31,444 nucleotides of DNA from Endomicrobiia bacterium (GTDB lineage: Bacteria; Elusimicrobiota; Endomicrobiia; PHAN01). The stretch spans positions 1 through 31,444 of the forward strand of contig JASEHK010000001.1 in assembly GCA_030018875.1 (NCBI GenBank), read 5' to 3'. This document shows, in pieces, positions 2,399-8,883 of the stretch. The notes under the pieces were generated by a model that saw nothing but the letters and a program-made list of their open reading frames with translations, was not told where the DNA came from and searched no databases. The position numbers were made by a program, and so were the translations under genes. Each line of letters starts with the position of its first letter. Position 1 is the stretch's first letter.

Positions 2399-2719
2399 TC
2401 AGAACGTCACTGTTTTGTCCGCTTCCTTTATGATATTGTGCAAATCCTTCATCGTGGAAATCGGGCACAATTGACTTCCGTCTTTCTGACGCAGTTTAAG
2501 ACAGGTGCCGCAGGCAAGAATCCTGCCGCCCGCGTCCAGAAACTTCTGCGCCTGCTCGACGATGTTGAATTTTTCTCCGGATAGTTTTTCATACTCAACG
2601 CCTTTTGCCAAAAGAAAAACATCGACGGAGTCCTTTTGTTCCAGCGCGAAGTTCCCCAGCCGGAACGCGTTCCAGACGAGTTCCGCGTCGGTCGAATAAA
2701 TGACTATACCGAGTTTCAT
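2399..2719 (-). CDS. DsrE/DsrF-like family sulfur-relay protein
   Basis: MKLGIVI..ELVWNAFRLGNFAL, VFLLAKGVE, ILACGTCLKLR and CPISTMKDL motifs. SD AAGGAG. Confidence 0.85.
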   Translation of the reverse strand: MKLGIVIYSTDAELVWNAFRLGNFALEQKDSVDVFLLAKGVEYEKLSGEKFNIVEQAQKFLDAGGRILACGTCLKLRQKDGSQLCPISTMKDLHNIIKEADKTVTF

Positions 2720-2738
2720 AAAGACGTCTCCTTAAGTT

Positions 2739-3056
2739 TTACTTTATTTTTTCAAGCAGCGCTTTGTCTCGCTTGAGTTTTTTAATCAAAATTTTTCGCA
2801 TTATGTCGCAGGCCTTGATTATATCCGGGTCGCTGAGTTCATAACAGACGTTCCTGCCTTTTCTTTCGGCCGTTACCACGCCCTGCTCCACGAGCAAAGA
2901 CATATGCTGCGAAAGTATCACCTTGTTGGTCTTTACCTTCCCGAGCAGTTCGGAGGCGCACAACTTTTTGTTCCTGAGAGCGTTTATTATCATCAGGCGC
3001 ACGGGATTGGCCAGCGTCTTACACACTTCGGCGTGCAGGCCGTAAATCTCTTCCAT
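2739..3056 (-). CDS. ArsR/SmtB family transcriptional regulator
   Basis: KTLANPVRLMII, LSQHMSLL and ERKGRNVCYEL winged-helix signature. SD AGGGAG. Confidence 0.93.
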   Translation of the reverse strand: MEEIYGLHAEVCKTLANPVRLMIINALRNKKLCASELLGKVKTNKVILSQHMSLLVEQGVVTAERKGRNVCYELSDPDIIKACDIMRKILIKKLKRDKALLEKIK

Positions 3057-3424: not shown

Positions 3425-3646
3425 TTAAAACGTGATACGCGCCATGGATATTTTAACGTTGGGAACCCAAAGAAAAAAGATGTGCGCGGAATAACCCTTC
3501 TTTTTCAAAACTTTGAGGAAGTCCGCGTAAGATCTTCCGGCCAGAGTCGTCTCGAAAGAAAAGTCCTGACCCGTCCGCGCGAGGTTGTGAAGTTGTTCAA
3601 GAACGAGTTTCCCGGCTTTCAGCGCGGCGGTTTGAGGCGTTTTTAT
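3425..3646 (-). pseudogene. Internal fragment of a zeta-toxin-like / COG4185 P-loop ATPase
   Basis: Manual translation gives IKTPQTAALKAGKLVLEQLHNLARTGQDFSFETTLAGRSYADFLKVLKKKGYSAHIFFLWVPNVKISMARITF*. It carries the family's FETTL.G and GY..H.FFLW motifs but has no start codon and no Walker A. Confidence 0.75.
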
Positions 3647-4312
3647 TTATCCAAGTTTCGTACCGCACTCGCCGCAGAATCTCGTTCCGACAAAATTTTT
3701 CGCTCCGCATTTCGGGCATTTTATCAAGTCGAGCGGCCCGCCGCAGTTGTTGCAGAACTTACCCTCGCCGGCGGGTTTGCCGCATTGGGAACAGAGTGTT
3801 TGCTTGCTTTCAATTTCTCCGGTAAAGACCTGTGTGCCCGCCGCTTTTTCATGTATATCCTGAACCGCTTTTTGCGCTTTGGCGGCGGCCACTTCAACGT
3901 TTACTCTCGGAGCATCGTCCACACAAAGTCCTTCCTGTTCGTTCCAGTCGTTCTCGCAGACCCATTTTTTGCATTTCGGGCAACGATGAAAATGTTGTTT
4001 TGCTTCGTTCTGGGCAAGTTCAAACGCAACTTCATGTTCCTTGTGCCAGTCGGGGGACATACCCTGATAGCGTTCGGTGAGAATATCGGCTCCCCTTTCA
4101 ATCGTATAGCCCGTTCCATATTTTCCCAACAAAGACGTGCCTATTGACACCGCCCGGCCGAGGCCGCGAAGGAGACCGGCTTTTTTATGGGTTTTGGACT
4201 CCACAAATTTGGTCTTGTAACCTTCTCTGCACAGGTCGCAGAAAAAAGTAAACTGAAACCCCGCATCCGTGCTGTTATCCGCAAAATTACTCGTAAATGG
4301 TTGCAGCGACAT
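3647..4312 (-). CDS. Zinc-ribbon protein with C-terminal double zinc ribbon (DZR)
   Basis: GFQFTFFCDLC, HFHRCPKC, then CSQC/CNNC/CPKC/CGEC. SD AGGAGG. Confidence 0.85.
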   Translation of the reverse strand: MSLQPFTSNFADNSTDAGFQFTFFCDLCREGYKTKFVESKTHKKAGLLRGLGRAVSIGTSLLGKYGTGYTIERGADILTERYQGMSPDWHKEHEVAFELAQNEAKQHFHRCPKCKKWVCENDWNEQEGLCVDDAPRVNVEVAAAKAQKAVQDIHEKAAGTQVFTGEIESKQTLCSQCGKPAGEGKFCNNCGGPLDLIKCPKCGAKNFVGTRFCGECGTKLG

Positions 4313-4328
4313 GGTTTTATCCTCCTTT

Positions 4329-4688
4329 TTATTTTTCCGATATAAACGGAGCCGCTTTTGGCAAAAATGGCTTGCCGCATTTTATACATTTATCTCCAAT
4401 TGGCGGTTGCTCGGTTTTACATTTTGGATTAGGACAAACGACAACCAACCGAGCGTCGCAGTGTCCGCAGTAATCTCCGAAAAAAGTTGTCTTGCCGCAT
4501 TTCGGACAAGCAATTTCCAATGAGAGCCCGCAACTACCGCATTTCTTCCAGTCCTTCTGAATCGGATTCCGGCATTTGGGACAGCGGCTCGACCCAACTG
4601 GATTTATTTTACCACAAAATGGACATACATTTGAATCTTGCTCGATTAACTTCTCGCAATATTTACAAGGATGTTTATATCCCGGCAT
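4329..4688 (-). CDS. Small multi-zinc-ribbon (DZR) protein
   Basis: Eight CxxC/CxxxxC pairs. Start moved to ATG 4688 behind SD GGAGGTGA. Confidence 0.85.
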   Translation of the reverse strand: MPGYKHPCKYCEKLIEQDSNVCPFCGKINPVGSSRCPKCRNPIQKDWKKCGSCGLSLEIACPKCGKTTFFGDYCGHCDARLVVVCPNPKCKTEQPPIGDKCIKCGKPFLPKAAPFISEK

Positions 4689-4728
4689 AGTCAATCACCT
4701 CCGATATTTTAGTTTGTTTCTAATAAAT

Positions 4729-4758
4729 TTCATGGGCGGACAAATGCCCGCTCATGAA
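4729..4758. repeat. Intergenic hairpin
   Basis: TTCATGGGCGGACA / TGCCCGCTCATGAA, 14-position stem with one G-T pair and one mismatch. Confidence 0.5.
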
Positions 4759-4773
4759 CAGCCGGGCGGAATT

Positions 4774-5337
4774 TTAATCCGATGTCCAAATTTCCTCAAA
4801 TTTTTCCTTTGCTTTATCCCAATAATATAGCACCGAGGAGCATTCCACATAAACAATCTCCACTGCGGGCAACTTCAATATTATTTGTTTTCTATCCTTT
4901 TTGTCGGGTCCTGCCATTGTTTCTCTCACTAATCTTCCGGCTGGAATAAATGCTAAATACATATTCGAAAAAAGATAAGTGTCATAATACTCTTCCATGA
5001 TAACTATTGGTTCCAACGTTTTTCGCGTAGCGGTCGAAAGAAATATAACAAATTTTACTTTTACATCTTCTCTGATCTTCTTAAACAACAAAACCGCATA
5101 ATCATTAACCGCATCTCCATTAAAATCTGCTTTTACCCAACCCGGATGTGGAACATCTTTTGACCAGTTTTGCGAAGAATTACTTAAATTAGAGTATTGA
5201 AAAATTTCCCAGCCGGGATAAAAATGTTTTGCCAAAAACAGAACCGCCGACGGCATTGTATTTTTCTGACGCGCTTCAACATTCTGACAAATGATGAGAA
5301 ACGGAACAAATATGAAAAGCAGCGCCCCGTTTCTCAT
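4774..5337 (-). CDS. Exported protein with an FG-GAP/VCBS-like DxNxD motif; candidate immunity protein
   Basis: ATG at 5337 lies 1 nt after the upstream stop (TAA-A-ATG). Signal peptide MRNGALLFIFVPFLIICQNVEA; motif ADFNGDAVNDYAVLL. Confidence 0.7.
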   Translation of the reverse strand: MRNGALLFIFVPFLIICQNVEARQKNTMPSAVLFLAKHFYPGWEIFQYSNLSNSSQNWSKDVPHPGWVKADFNGDAVNDYAVLLFKKIREDVKVKFVIFLSTATRKTLEPIVIMEEYYDTYLFSNMYLAFIPAGRLVRETMAGPDKKDRKQIILKLPAVEIVYVECSSVLYYWDKAKEKFEEIWTSD

Positions 5338-5338
5338 T

Positions 5339-6487
5339 TTATTTATTAACTTTCGGGTCATACTCGATATGAATATGCGGTTCTTCCCCTTTTTCATATA
5401 TCGTATCATAATTTTCTCCCAATTTACTTTTGAGCATTTCCGTTATTCGGTTTATTTGTGAGGCCGCAAGGTCTTTCGTTCTTAAATCAACCGCATTGCC
5501 GGAATAATGACGCGAGTTTGAACCATGTTCACCGTTGGTAGTAAAGGTTACTATCCCATTGCGCCCGGCAATGGCGTTGAATGTATCATTTACTATACTT
5601 TCTATATCTTTGATATTTTGTGTCAAACCATCGCCGGATGTTTGGTCACCAGCATAAACCCATGCATCCCCTTTAAGCCGGGAAAAAATCTGCGCCAACA
5701 ATGACTGAACTTCTTCCCTATGAATAAACCCTTCGGCTTTCAATGTTGAACATTCGGGATGATTTTTGCAGGCGCCACACCCACATCGCTCATTGCGTTT
5801 ATGTTTTCTTCGCGTCATTTGGCATGAAGCGGAATGTATCTGTGTGTCGCCAGTCGGCAAAAAAGCGTAAAATAAAACATTTCCAGTTATTACAAAATTA
5901 TTGATTAAAACCGCCTGGCAAATCTTTTTCCCGTCTTTTCCGATAAGAAAAAGCGCTTTTTCTTCTAAAAATTTTCCTTTTTCAAGTTTAGCGCCGGATT
6001 GAGAGAGCGTCATGATGCCTTCGTCAAATGCTTTTTTGGCTTCTTCTACAAGTTCTTTCGGCGCAAATGCCTCCAACAAATCGCCTAAAGAAATACCTGT
6101 TGATGCGCCCGGTACGGGAGCATCGAAACCATAAGTCGGCGCTGTTTGATAACTTTCAAAAAATTGTTGCGCTGTTTTATTGTCCGGATAACCGGCAATG
6201 TGGAAATAGAGCAAATAATCATGTTTATCAGGGTCAAAGCCACTGACGTTATTAGCATCCTGTTGAGATTTAATTAATTCCGCCAATTGGCCCTTGCTAA
6301 CAAATGGATTTGAAGCAAGCGAATCTATAAAATCCTGCATCGTCCCGGAAAGGGGGCTGATATGACCTAATTTTACATTATGGGCGCCGTCTTGTAATAA
6401 GATATCCACCACTTCCCACCTTGGCGGCCACCGTGAAGGCAGAAGTTTTTTCATCTCTTCTTTTGTCGGCAACGAACTGTTCCTCAT
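5339..6487 (-). CDS. Protein with an unknown N-terminal region and a C-terminal M15/LAS-fold zinc peptidase domain
   Basis: C-terminal RHYSGNAVD (H-x6-D) and PHIHIE (HxH). Start moved to ATG 6487 behind GGAGGGGGG. Confidence 0.75.
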   Translation of the reverse strand: MRNSSLPTKEEMKKLLPSRWPPRWEVVDILLQDGAHNVKLGHISPLSGTMQDFIDSLASNPFVSKGQLAELIKSQQDANNVSGFDPDKHDYLLYFHIAGYPDNKTAQQFFESYQTAPTYGFDAPVPGASTGISLGDLLEAFAPKELVEEAKKAFDEGIMTLSQSGAKLEKGKFLEEKALFLIGKDGKKICQAVLINNFVITGNVLFYAFLPTGDTQIHSASCQMTRRKHKRNERCGCGACKNHPECSTLKAEGFIHREEVQSLLAQIFSRLKGDAWVYAGDQTSGDGLTQNIKDIESIVNDTFNAIAGRNGIVTFTTNGEHGSNSRHYSGNAVDLRTKDLAASQINRITEMLKSKLGENYDTIYEKGEEPHIHIEYDPKVNK

Positions 6488-6561
6488 GTTTTTGACCCCC
6501 CTCCCTGCTTTACGGAGACTTTTCCGCAAATACGCTCAATGGTTACACCTTGCAGCGCCAT
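6484..6561 (-). CDS. Candidate 25-aa micro-ORF MALQGVTIERICGKVSVKQGGGSKT (not in the ORF track)
   Basis: SD-like AAGGAAG before ATG 6561. Its TGA overlaps the next ATG (ATGA at 6487-6484). Confidence 0.45.
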   Translation of the reverse strand: MALQGVTIERICGKVSVKQGGGSKT

Positions 6562-6598
6562 TGGTCCGCACTTCCTTTATTATTTGAGTGAGTTAGTA

Positions 6599-8635
6599 TT
6601 ATCCCCTCGTTCCAGCGACAAAAGTCGGGCTTTTTATCCTAAATTTTCCCCGGCCGTTGTATATTACTATCTGCCTTATGCTATTGAAAGATTTTGCACT
6701 GAACGCGCCGGGGTTGGATTTCAGTAGCGTGAATTTCTGCGGTTCGTCGGCAGGGTTATAGATTTCGATTTCGGCGCCGGAAAAACCCTCGGTTTTTATC
6801 AGTTTCGCGCAAAGATTTGTCCCGGGGATCGGTTGCGGTATGATTTTTTCGGGCCATAACTCTGACGGTATCCCGCGCCACTCTTCATACTTTACGCTCT
6901 TATGGTTGTTTACTTCGGCATCGGCGCAGTCGTCAACCAAAAAGAGAAATTTGGTTTCATCCTCGCTAATCTCTTCAAAATTCGGTTTCCGGGCAAGATT
7001 CCATATTAGTTTCTGTTTAAAGTCATGGCCGACTTCAGGATGCAGGGAAAAGTATTTAAGGATTTTTAGATACATCGGGATGTCGCGCATTTCATAGCCG
7101 AAAACACAGGGCTCCTCCGCCTCGGGGCCGGGTTTTCCCTCGTCAAGACAAAACGCTTCCAGATTAAAACGAATCTTTGAACGCGGGGGAATCACGGTCT
7201 CTGTCGGGTCGTCTCGCAGCATCTTTTCCGCATCGGGAGAATCCGTGATATCGGCAAGTGAGTCCGGGTCAAAATCAAGTTCCGTGACGAATCCCGGCAC
7301 ATTATCAATGCCTCTTTTCGTCCATTTTTCAAGGTCGTTATTCGAAGTTACGTTAAACTTCAATAAATCCATCACATCTTTCTTCCACTGTTCCGTCGAG
7401 GAATGAATGACCCTTCCGATGAAAAGATGGCGCAACTCGCGGAGCGCCGGTATTTTAGCGATGGCGAAATTATATTTCTGATACTGCGGCTCTTTGAGCC
7501 GTTCGTCCGGTAAATAAATCGGTTCTCTCCTGAAGTTTATGGCAAGCATACAACGATTTATTCTTATGGTAAAATTGTCCGTCTCCTTGTGCAAATCTTC
7601 GATATTCTTAAAATTCGGGTAATCTTTCCTGCTTGCGATTCTGAAGAAATAAGTTGCCTTGCCGGCGCCTTCGCCGGAAATTGCCTCCATGGCGACCGCG
7701 TTGCCGGGTTCGTCGGGGTTTTTGCTATACATCGGAATCAAAAACCAGATATACTCCCCGGTCAAATCGCCCAGAAGTCCGCGTTTTAATCCGATACACA
7801 TTTTCTTTTCTTGGGCGAGAGATTTCAAAAAATCGTATTCTTCTTTTATCCCCGCCACCTCCAATTTCTTTTCTAATTCGGTCCAGAGTTCCGGAGAAAT
7901 TGATTCTATGTCGCTTCTTCGCGCCGCCTTGCCTTCTTTCATAAGTCGGGCGGCTCGTCTTATAACCGACGGGTCGGATTTAGGCAATAAATCTTTGAGC
8001 GACGATTGAACTTTGAGAGAAAGTTCGTTAATAGAGTCGGAGAGAGTTTTTGCAAACGGGTCGAATTGTCCGCCCATTTTTGAAAAGACAAATTTTTCTC
8101 CGAAGTCAGTTGTCATCGCAAGGATAAAATCTTCGCCGCAAATTTCTAAAATGTCGCTGTAAGGTATTCTTACGAGTTCTCCTTTTTCCGGTATCAATAC
8201 CAATGCAGTTTCATATAAACGCGGTTCGCATTTTCCTCTTTGTTTTTCATTGCCGCCGTCGTCAAAATAAACAAACTCCGCTTCCGCGGCGGATTTCTTG
8301 AGCGTTTCTTGCATCAACATATCTTTCAAGATTATTTCATTGCGCAAACGCGAAAGAACTCTCATAAAATCTTCGTGCTTGTAGCCGAGATTGAAAATTG
8401 TAAGTCTTTCTTTTGAAGTCAGGGCGAGATAAATTTTATAGTCGCCCCCGGAAATTTCAAGAATATCCCTCAGAGAAAAAAATAACGGCTCGCCGAACTT
8501 CGGCATGACGACAATGTTTTCTTCCTTCAATATGACTTGAGCATCGTTGCTCGCCGCCGTTTGGCTTGCCTCATCACTCAAAGAATAACTCGCGCGGCAT
8601 TCCATAATGATTTCTTGTTTATTTTCTTCGCTCAT
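6599..8635 (-). CDS. 678-aa protein: two tandem PH-like repeats, an unknown middle region and a C-terminal thioester-domain-like module
   Basis: Long ORF. Internal repeat ENIVVMPKFGEPLFFSLRDILEI / ETALVLIPEKGELVRIPYSDILEI. C-terminal FCLD and QKLIW motifs. Confidence 0.75.
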   Translation of the reverse strand: MSEENKQEIIMECRASYSLSDEASQTAASNDAQVILKEENIVVMPKFGEPLFFSLRDILEISGGDYKIYLALTSKERLTIFNLGYKHEDFMRVLSRLRNEIILKDMLMQETLKKSAAEAEFVYFDDGGNEKQRGKCEPRLYETALVLIPEKGELVRIPYSDILEICGEDFILAMTTDFGEKFVFSKMGGQFDPFAKTLSDSINELSLKVQSSLKDLLPKSDPSVIRRAARLMKEGKAARRSDIESISPELWTELEKKLEVAGIKEEYDFLKSLAQEKKMCIGLKRGLLGDLTGEYIWFLIPMYSKNPDEPGNAVAMEAISGEGAGKATYFFRIASRKDYPNFKNIEDLHKETDNFTIRINRCMLAINFRREPIYLPDERLKEPQYQKYNFAIAKIPALRELRHLFIGRVIHSSTEQWKKDVMDLLKFNVTSNNDLEKWTKRGIDNVPGFVTELDFDPDSLADITDSPDAEKMLRDDPTETVIPPRSKIRFNLEAFCLDEGKPGPEAEEPCVFGYEMRDIPMYLKILKYFSLHPEVGHDFKQKLIWNLARKPNFEEISEDETKFLFLVDDCADAEVNNHKSVKYEEWRGIPSELWPEKIIPQPIPGTNLCAKLIKTEGFSGAEIEIYNPADEPQKFTLLKSNPGAFSAKSFNSIRQIVIYNGRGKFRIKSPTFVAGTRG

Positions 8636-8883
8636 AATTATTTCCTACCGAATATCTTGATTCGTCCCCAAAACTCTTTCCCCTTATAGCGGGCGAAGGA
8701 GCGCCCGGACATAAGTAAATTATATAAAAAAAGGATGCGCCAAACGTGATTACGGGCGGGAGCGCGGGCGGTAGGTACGGGTGTTTCCGTGGGAGAAATG
8801 GTGGTTTGAATATGTCTCCGAGGATTTTTCCGTTTTGAAAAAGTGGGGAAGGGGAGGACTTTATGGTTAGGTTGCCAGATGAT

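Follow-up and report, generated by a model that had tools for sequence, protein, structure and literature searches.

Organization of the locus

We analysed positions 1 to 31,444 of contig JASEHK010000001.1 from an Endomicrobiia bacterium (assembly GCA_030018875.1, Elusimicrobiota), a stretch referred to here as the window. Its minus strand carries, from position 8635 to 3647, an operon of five substantial co-oriented open reading frames (ORFs), named A to E, and one ORF of 25 codons (the micro-ORF) between A and B. A first-pass annotation made from the sequence had likewise counted six tightly spaced, co-oriented ORFs, and had treated them as a single module. The comparisons presented below make a different view reasonably probable, namely that the operon has a mosaic structure, in which an insert of conflict type was recently added to a mobile core of older date: residues 1-440 of A, together with D and E, would form the old conserved core, the C-terminal tip of B and the whole of C the recent insert, and the micro-ORF would be a deletion scar. 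The source genome (G000) is a metagenome-assembled genome (MAG) of 341 contigs and 1.77 Mb, 89.7% complete.

All ORFs of the operon have a Shine–Dalgarno site or an overlapping start. Gene A (8635-6599) encodes 678 amino acids and is followed by the micro-ORF (6561-6484), the stop codon of which overlaps the start of B (ATGA). Gene B (6487-5339) encodes 382 amino acids from an ATG at 6487 behind AGGGAGG; a TTG at 6529 was considered as its start and rejected since the Shine–Dalgarno site lies at ATG 6487 and the N-termini of the family align from that position. Gene C (5409-4774; 211 amino acids) has a GGGAG 6 nt upstream of its start, and an alternative ATG at 5337 would give a protein of 187 amino acids, so that, depending on the start, C overlaps B or is separated from it by a 1-nt gap. 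Gene D begins at ATG 4688 (or TTG 4694) behind GGAGGTG and ends at 4329 (about 119-121 amino acids), and gene E (4312-3647; 221 amino acids) lies behind AAGGAGG.

The operon is more AT-rich than its flanks, as had been noticed in the first-pass annotation: its GC content is 43.8% compared with 52.7% in the remainder of the window, with a sharp drop at 4500-6000. The GC content at third codon positions (GC3) is 35-54% across the operon and 55-67% in the flanking housekeeping genes; within the operon it is 35-40% for B, C and D (B and C, at 35-38%, are the lowest) and 49-54% for A and E. The gene remnant described earlier at the left boundary is also there. Directly after the stop codon of E, positions 3428-3646 of the minus strand encode 73 amino acids with no start codon and a terminal stop, which match positions 79-132 of the 199 in Zeta_toxin PF06414 (E 1.9e-4; 21.4 bits, cut-off 22.3). 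By this match, the remnant is an internal fragment of a zeta-toxin gene.

The core cassette

The first 440 residues of A were modelled with AlphaFold at a mean predicted local distance difference test (pLDDT) of 92.4 and a predicted template modelling score (pTM) of 0.88. The model shows a first PH domain at residues 9-105 (8321-8611) and a second at residues 112-216 (7988-8302), the latter also recognised by Foldseek, with VIA Z scores of 12-13 to PH, GLUE, EVH1 and PTB domains. The best whole-chain Foldseek matches are double-PH proteins, namely Pob3M, BBS5, CheF (7ovp), Rtt106 and Spt16M (E ~1e-5). Residues 217-440 (7316-7987) form a helical linker and an alpha/beta domain in the secondary structure of the model, to which no fold could be assigned, and contain the columns of the family alignment A1 that are the most conserved (KRGL, ATYFFR, FRREP and GRVIH). 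On this model, A is a tandem-PH scaffold protein. D (4329-4694) is a zinc-ribbon array of about 120 amino acids (Pfam DZR, E 7.5e-14), and E (3647-4312) consists of an N-terminal Cys-containing domain and a C-terminal double zinc ribbon (Pfam DZR, E 9.8e-9). The PH-PH and zinc-ribbon domains guessed in the first-pass annotation are thus confirmed, as are the peptidase tip of B and the exported nature of C discussed below. No transmembrane segment, signal peptide or enzymatic domain was detected in A, D or E.

Judged by sequence comparison, A(1-440) forms with D and E one copy of an undescribed cassette that is widespread, moves horizontally and keeps its genes together in bacteria and archaea. 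Residues 1-440 of A have more than 1000 relatives, mostly of about 445 amino acids and 65-82% identical, none of which carries a Pfam domain; an exhaustive HMMER search placed the family in 702 clusters at 50% identity. Named sources include Actinomycetota, Fervidobacterium, Saccharicenans, Anaerolineae, Methanomicrobiales, Thermoplasmatota and Njordarchaeota. D and E were found downstream of A in loci from Actinomycetota-type, Stahlbacteria, Bacillota, Saccharicenans and Thermoplasmata MAGs, and tblastn identities between the window and loci from Actinomycetota and these other groups are 66-86% for the N-terminal part of A (A_N), 70-82% for D and 70-82% for E. For D this range covers 7 loci from 6 phyla, for E it covers bacteria and archaea, with a mean column identity of 82%. 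Among loci with enough flanking sequence, A was linked to E in 17 of 18 and to D in 15 of 18. Ten further genomes, identified by a profile search, have the orders A-D-E (six loci), A-B1N-D-E, D-E-A, E-A (two distant loci) or A-B1-B2 interrupted by a contig end (B1 and B2 are described in the next section). In the distant Actinomycetota loci L039:2436-4614 and L040:2371-4274 (loci used for comparison are given as L numbers with their own coordinates) the order is E-A, and A is an open frame of 616-681 amino acids with 22-35% identity. The A family thus extends well beyond its highly conserved subgroup.

Outside the cassette, the neighbours are unrelated housekeeping genes that change with the locus (tRNA-guanine transglycosylase, Mnh antiporter, ParB, purine synthesis), and no conserved external neighbour was found in the loci compared. 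A possible link to a giant gene beside L017 was dropped since it was not repeated in L019 or L020. The cassette is single-copy in each of five genomes checked and rare, being present in 5/301 and 8/401 sampled genomes of two phyla. Among 60 relatives of the source MAG, a full-length cassette was found in the same-genus genome only, and of two genomes of the same family one has the cassette. The A_N of the window is 85.7% identical to the copy of this sister species (G001) and 81.6% identical to that of an Actinomycetota MAG, and A is richer in AT than its surroundings in several hosts, which together point to recent transfer between phyla and domains. The horizontal acquisition proposed in the first-pass annotation is borne out by the low GC content, the presence in one of two same-family genomes and identities of 75-82% to other phyla and archaea. 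Gene exchange between the two domains at such a level of identity is rare. Searches of IMG/VR contigs, of 72,556 plasmids and of 50,697 phage records gave no match to A_N. What makes the cassette worth attention is that A, D and E, although none of them has an enzymatic domain, remain linked and retain 65-85% identity in a dozen phyla of bacteria and archaea.

The first-pass annotation knew of no described system with such a composition, and we found no Pfam, PADLOC or PDB family for the core beyond the PH fold and the zinc ribbons. PADLOC-DB 2.0 gave 0 families for all five proteins (E <=0.1), NCBIfam gave no match and PHROGs only zinc-ribbon noise; by sequence, the PDB had no match for A or the B1 family, and for E zinc ribbons only. 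No function for an A/D/E core is proposed in the literature searched. The archaeal chemotaxis adaptor CheF (7ovp) shares the tandem PH arrangement with A (Foldseek E 3.8e-5), but A has no match to PF04283 (nor to any Pfam family at E <=0.1) and no che or archaellum neighbours. Two consecutive PH-like domains also serve as a protein-binding platform in the double-PH scaffolds Pob3/Spt16/Rtt106 and BBS5, and in the Vps36 GLUE domain; from CheF and these scaffolds A differs by its extra 220-residue domain without an assigned fold. Vps36 joins PH with zinc fingers, and its GLUE domain in ESCRT-II has the PH fold of A (2cay, Z 12.0; 2dx5, Z 12.1). There, however, the NZF fingers are inserted in the PH domain, while the zinc ribbons here are separate genes with no ESCRT genes nearby. 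The core thus matches no described system: CheF, Vps36 GLUE and, as seen below, FecR regulators, thioester-domain adhesins and the systems of PADLOC are each short of a defining feature or inconclusive.

The slot between A and D

Comparison of the related loci shows, from sequence families, that one or two proteins with a FecR domain, here called B1 and B2, are the usual content of the slot between A and D; one or both families occupy it in 10-11 of 22 loci. B1 proteins have 420-550 amino acids, an N-terminal domain beginning ...LPTKEEMEKLLPxxWPxxWE, a Cys-rich C..C.C..C..HPEC motif and a C-terminal Pfam FecR domain. B2 proteins have 380-420 amino acids, a FecR-like N-terminus (MALQGTNIS.ITGEVFVKQG) and a C-terminus with a weak match to DUF4352. 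Residues 1-283 of B (5639-6487) are a B1 domain, 28-54% (most 40-54%) identical to 27 B1 proteins, with no transmembrane segment or signal peptide. FecR (PF04773) is found C-terminally in 23 of the 27 relatives. All 24 other full-length B1 relatives are without a peptidase and 23 of them have FecR in its place, so that, among full-length proteins, the peptidase head is confined to the protein of the window. The B1 homology of B ends at residue 283, right after ...IFSRLKG in the family alignment A5, beyond which the 26 other sequences run on into FecR and B into the peptidase.

The slot is also where the two species of the genus differ. In a blastn comparison with the sister locus L010, the window aligns at 6732-8646 and 3647-4702 only; the 2.0 kb between them (4703-6731) has no nucleotide similarity to the sister cassette and is replaced there. 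The corresponding slot of G001 holds a CHASE2 gene on the opposite strand (L010:10223-11224 (-); PF05226, E 2e-27), the protein of which has a signal-like or lipobox-like N-terminus. CHASE2 sensors often pair with FecR-domain proteins, and the presence of a CHASE2 gene in this slot may not be due to chance. In the window, the 79-nt gap between C and D (4695-4773) contains a GC-rich hairpin (CCGCCCGG...GAGCGGGC) without a T-run, which may mark the right-hand junction of the insert.

The micro-ORF, taken for a gene of its own in the first-pass annotation, turns out to be better described as a remnant. Its product MALQGVTIERICGKVSVKQG matches the B2 start codons at L013:6495, L014:3918 and L016:6812 (58-65% identity, 26.6-27.7 bits) over the first 20-24 B2 codons, whereas 100 shuffles gave a maximum of 22.7 bits. 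Because the alignment falls exactly at the B2 starts and scores above all shuffles, positions 6484-6561 are what is left, at the 5′ end, of a deleted gene of the B2 family (FecR-like/DUF4352). In cassettes where A carries the C-terminal module A_C described below (Bacillota and gammaproteobacterial MAGs), B2 lies directly after A, and the ancestral order here, reconstructed from such sequences, was likely A with A_C, B2, D and E.

A different occupant was observed in a Saccharicenans MAG. At L020:11082-11978 the slot holds a 298-residue protein in which a short N-terminus of B1 type (KEMLKLLPQQWPEGF) is combined with a double zinc ribbon that replaces FecR at the C-terminus, with two small signal-bearing proteins upstream. 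This protein is another head variant.

The B1 and B2 relatives share the FecR beta-sandwich with FecR-family proteins (PF04773). They differ from FecR regulators in that the FecR-bearing relatives have no transmembrane helix, no partner of the ECF sigma or TonB-transducer type and no linked sigma gene; the B protein of the window has lost the FecR domain itself.

The peptidase tip of B and its partner C

The C-terminal tip of B (residues 284-382; 5342-5638) resembles a zinc peptidase of the hedgehog/M15_3 (LAS) type. It aligns to structures of the Sonic hedgehog N-domain (ShhN) over 87 residues (E 0.003), and H327, D334, H371/H373 and E365 of B fall on zinc-site and catalytic positions (SLHYEGRAVD...YES.KAHIH); the aligned columns are those which, from established knowledge of ShhN, we take to be the zinc ligands. 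These motifs, H-x6-D and H-x-H plus a Glu, are kept in the same columns of five Microviridae and window sequences, an alignment that is colinear from ITS.TDGKH...HY.G.A.D.R to the terminal HIH.EYDP. End to end, the tip is 34-45% identical to ORFs of 100-120 amino acids from 14 Microviridae genomes and one other phage record (tblastn, E down to 5e-14). Pfam scores are below the cut-off (HH_signal, E 0.026; Peptidase_M15_3, E 0.15), and it is through its motifs and its microviral relatives that the tip is assigned to the LAS group. The matched ORFs are annotated as hypothetical only, and their M15_3 identity is taken from PMC3394797 and from an Atlas lead, which agrees with such an identity for the tip. 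Microviridae M15_3 peptidase genes have been argued to act as endolysins (Roux et al. 2012, PMC3394797). The tip of B is like these putative endolysins in its size of about 100 amino acids and in its whole-length identity including the HIHIEYDP end, but it is fused behind a 283-residue non-phage domain and paired with an exported partner.

C (4774-5409; 211 or 187 amino acids) has a basic N-terminus and a hydrophobic stretch followed by VEA|RQ, as expected for an exported protein. It has no relative in the 60 related genomes and no match in plasmids. A metagenome scan yielded two relatives (L024:853-1470 and L025:680-1288) with 24-31% identity, an invariant HPGWVKADFNGD..D.AVLL and signal-like N-termini, both directly after the C-terminus of an Rhs/YD-repeat protein (...YSPxxxRFxSEDP...DPxG[WR]). 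Immunity genes canonically occupy the position after an Rhs end (Zhang et al. 2012, PMC3482391). Five weaker relatives were added by a profile search in the phylum of the source MAG, and one of them (L045:1339-2010) lies 8 nt after a signal-peptide protein ending SAHRYGNNAD...GENPHYHL. The upstream partners contain comparable motif pairs: SRHYSGNAVD...GEEPHIH in the window, RAHKEGRAVD...GKDPQYH in L025 and SAHRYGNNAD...GENPHYH in L045. Since relatives of C lie directly behind Rhs ends or a protein with zinc-peptidase motifs, C is probably an immunity protein, and from the sequence context we regard it as a good candidate for a periplasmic one, the neutralisation being putative. After the C-like gene of L024, positions 1597-2301 hold a second, 5′-truncated Rhs/YD-repeat ORF, a layout known from orphan toxin–immunity arrays.

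The pair fits the exchangeable cassette that had been postulated in the first-pass annotation: it is absent from the sister species, the 24 other full-length B1 proteins have no peptidase, and relatives of C lie behind Rhs toxins. As in polymorphic toxins (Rhs proteins, or peptidoglycan effectors of the type VI secretion system (T6SS) such as Tse1-Tsi1; PMC3482391), an enzymatic C-terminal tip has been swapped on a conserved N-terminal part and the gene of a small exported protein lies directly downstream, the effector being without a signal peptide and the partner with one. On the other hand, the N-terminal part of B is a B1 domain of the cassette and not an Rhs, PAAR, LXG or other known trafficking domain, no secretion machine was found, and the arrangement was seen once. 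Taken alone, the peptidase–immunity insert is a module of a familiar type; what is new is its carrier.

The C-terminal module of A

The remaining part of A, residues 441-678 (A_C; 6602-7315), is joined to the protein in a limited set of lineages, which comprises this genus, one Bacillota and one gammaproteobacterial MAG, a Roizmanbacteria record and a few proteins from metagenomes. In the numbering of the module, all 20 of the 20 sequences have C56 (FCLD), Q101 and W105 (QxLIW). Of the 14 fused forms, 13 retain Q193 (PQKF), a residue that the lipoprotein paralogues do not share. The model (pLDDT 85) has a beta/three-helix/beta topology in which C56 ends the strand 46-56, Q101 and W105 lie in the second central helix and Q193 in the strand 193-196. 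The motif set and topology of thioester domains (TEDs) were described for the Gram-positive adhesins SfbI and Cpa and for TIE proteins (Walden et al. 2015, PMC4450167). A_C has the [YFL]C-hydrophobic-hydrophilic motif with its invariant Cys at a strand end, a central helix that contains QxxΦW, and the same beta/three-helix/beta order; the later strand with Q193 may correspond to the ΦQζΦΦ strand. Structural similarity is weak: over about 100 aligned residues the VIA Z scores are 3.7 (6fx6), 3.4 (5a0g and 6fwv), 3.3 (5a0l), 3.1 (5dcq) and 2.8 (2xi9), TED adhesins account for six of the top 50 among 48,161 chains, where no score is above Z 4.1, and the first Foldseek match, the Bacillus anthracis TIE protein 6fwv, is not significant (E 0.44). 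Of the TED-like character ascribed to A in the first-pass annotation, the Cys and QxxΦW motifs hold and the fold is weakly supported (Z 2.8-3.7). From motifs and model together, we lean slightly towards A_C being a TED-like module, the thioester itself being putative. The secreted, wall-anchored architecture of TED adhesins is absent, as A has no signal peptide, transmembrane segment, LPXTG or stalk repeats; A_C is instead fused to a cytoplasmic-looking PH protein in a diderm.

Paralogues of A_C in the source and related genomes are lipobox lipoproteins. They were found at L004:36-1418, L006:655-2106(-), L008:36-1442, L009:1195-2655, L005:793-1842(-) and L007:1396-2322, and on contig C163 of the source genome itself (L002:145-561). 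Several carry a C-terminal DUF6973 domain (PF22322, E 1e-18 to 1e-25), which by profile resembles a Bacteroides fragilis T6SS effector (9uu0, E 0.0015). The A_C-like/DUF6973 lipoproteins may represent a family of surface-anchored toxins.

A proposed recent insert in an old cassette

We propose the following sequence of events for the operon. B2 was deleted down to its 25-codon stump. An in-frame exchange directly behind the conserved ...IFSRLKG helix gave B1 a complete zinc peptidase of the hedgehog/M15_3 type in place of its FecR head, and gene C arrived together with it. A recent arrival is indicated by the GC3 of B and C, the lowest of the operon, and by the sister species, where A, D and E are present but B and C are not. 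The tip would cleave peptide bonds (cross-links) of peptidoglycan, and C, exported by its N-terminal signal, would protect the wall of the producer in the periplasm. The retained B1 domain might dock the peptidase on an A/D/E complex, as FecR-headed B1 proteins presumably do, the core acting as a cytoplasmic platform that holds exchangeable heads. The window offers a first hint at the function of the cassette, in that the slot can accept a toxin tip with an immunity gene, and that the cassette bears heads whose normal place of action is outside the cell. It also places M15 peptidases of the microvirus type and thioester-like domains in a new setting.

Several observations weigh against this proposal. 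The fusion of B1 and peptidase was seen on one MAG contig only, and the binding of B to A, D or E is something we infer; a prediction of the complex of A(1-440), E and B(1-283) gave a score of 0.01 for B as partner, a run made without controls that is evidence neither way. The slot is damaged in both species of the genus, so that a functional connection between insert and core may be absent. Pfam detects no known trafficking domain (Rhs, PAAR, LXG) in B, and VipB of the T6SS sheath, Phage_sheath_1 and PAAR were not found in the source genome (89.7% complete), which leaves the delivery of B without an explanation. The four other weaker relatives of C in the phylum have unrelated neighbours, none of them beside a peptidase. 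The Rhs and L045 tips have no Pfam name, and the tip of B has no significant similarity to them (BLASTP E >=0.15; small profile E 0.04), so that the link between the tip of B and those upstream of the C relatives is at the level of motifs only.

Alternatively, the peptidase tip and C could be a selfish toxin–immunity cassette which landed here by illegitimate or homologous recombination. Such an insert would use the operon only for transcription, the fusion to B1 would be functionally meaningless, and the cassette would be decaying in this genus. The reduction of B2 to a stump, the unrelated opposite-strand CHASE2 gene in the slot of the sister species, the absence of a peptidase from every other full-length B1 relative, the low GC3 of B and C and the adjoining zeta-toxin fragment all speak for such a reading. 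We nevertheless consider a mere hitch-hiker unlikely, as the swap preserves the reading frame and falls precisely on the domain linker, the whole 283-residue B1 domain is kept with its conserved residues, and none of the genes A to E is broken, each having its Shine–Dalgarno site or coupled start.

A mosaic of core and insert would also be compatible with a bolder and rather improbable reading, that the cassette is a cytoplasmic loading or presentation platform, common to bacteria and archaea, for release independent of signal peptides. The heads seen on the cassette are FecR, DUF4352, the TED-like domain with its lipoprotein paralogues, and the peptidoglycan peptidase with its putative periplasmic antidote. 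This reading is suggested by the fact that every one of these head families is otherwise extracytoplasmic, yet no head-bearing protein of the cassette has a signal peptide. The cargo could then be the proteins of the B1/B2 slot and the C-terminus of A, and the route could be vesicles, lysis-coupled release or a novel exporter.

A role in phage defence by abortive infection, in which A, D and E with FecR-type heads would detect some component of a phage and B would lyse the infected cell through its endolysin-like tip, seems to us still less plausible. The cassette is patchy, mobile and low in GC like defence islands, a zeta-toxin remnant lies alongside, and the tip is closest to the putative endolysins of Microviridae. 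Direct support for such a role is missing because the core has neither an enzyme nor a membrane part and none of the five proteins matched a PADLOC family; in its ordinary form the cassette is without enzymes, nucleases, ATPases and membrane effectors. Identities of 65-85% across phyla are unlike those of fast-evolving defence genes, there is no holin to bring a cytoplasmic lysin to the wall, and the position of C relatives after Rhs toxins fits immunity better than a lysis helper.

We give very little weight to envelope signalling or wall remodelling, where the FecR heads and the CHASE2 protein of the sister species would belong to a signalling pathway and B would be a housekeeping D,D- or L,D-peptidase. 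FecR domains in the B1 relatives and a CHASE2 gene in the slot of G001 are what one would look for, and M15 peptidases serve in wall turnover too (PMC3394797). But A, the B1 domain, D and E have no transmembrane segment or signal peptide, no sigma factor, kinase or cyclase is linked, and the cassette is present in archaea, which have no murein. Finally, a mis-assembly of the metagenome bin that joined the B/C stretch to the cassette is scarcely credible: the genome is indeed a MAG of 341 contigs, the fusion was seen once, on an assembled contig alone, and the GC content falls sharply at 4500-6000, but a chimeric join would need in-frame placement at the domain linker and would also have to recreate the ATGA overlap with the stump, and residues 1-283 of B belong to the cassette family. 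Overall, the interpretation offered in the first-pass annotation, a horizontally acquired module with an exchangeable effector pair, is partly supported, the part of adaptors or sensors that it gave to the PH-like and zinc-ribbon proteins being conjectural.

Flanking genes

The flanks of the operon are ordinary, with an ArsR-DsrE-porin-SLAC1 operon on one side and a cyclophilin/DJ-1 fusion, metW/metX and cysK on the other. The ArsR-DsrE-SLAC1 operon is downstream of E in the window (2399-3056 and 31-1131); in the sister species it is upstream of A and without the porin gene (L010:5465-7274). As it lies on opposite sides of the cassette in the two species, either the cassette has moved relative to this neighbour or the region has been rearranged.

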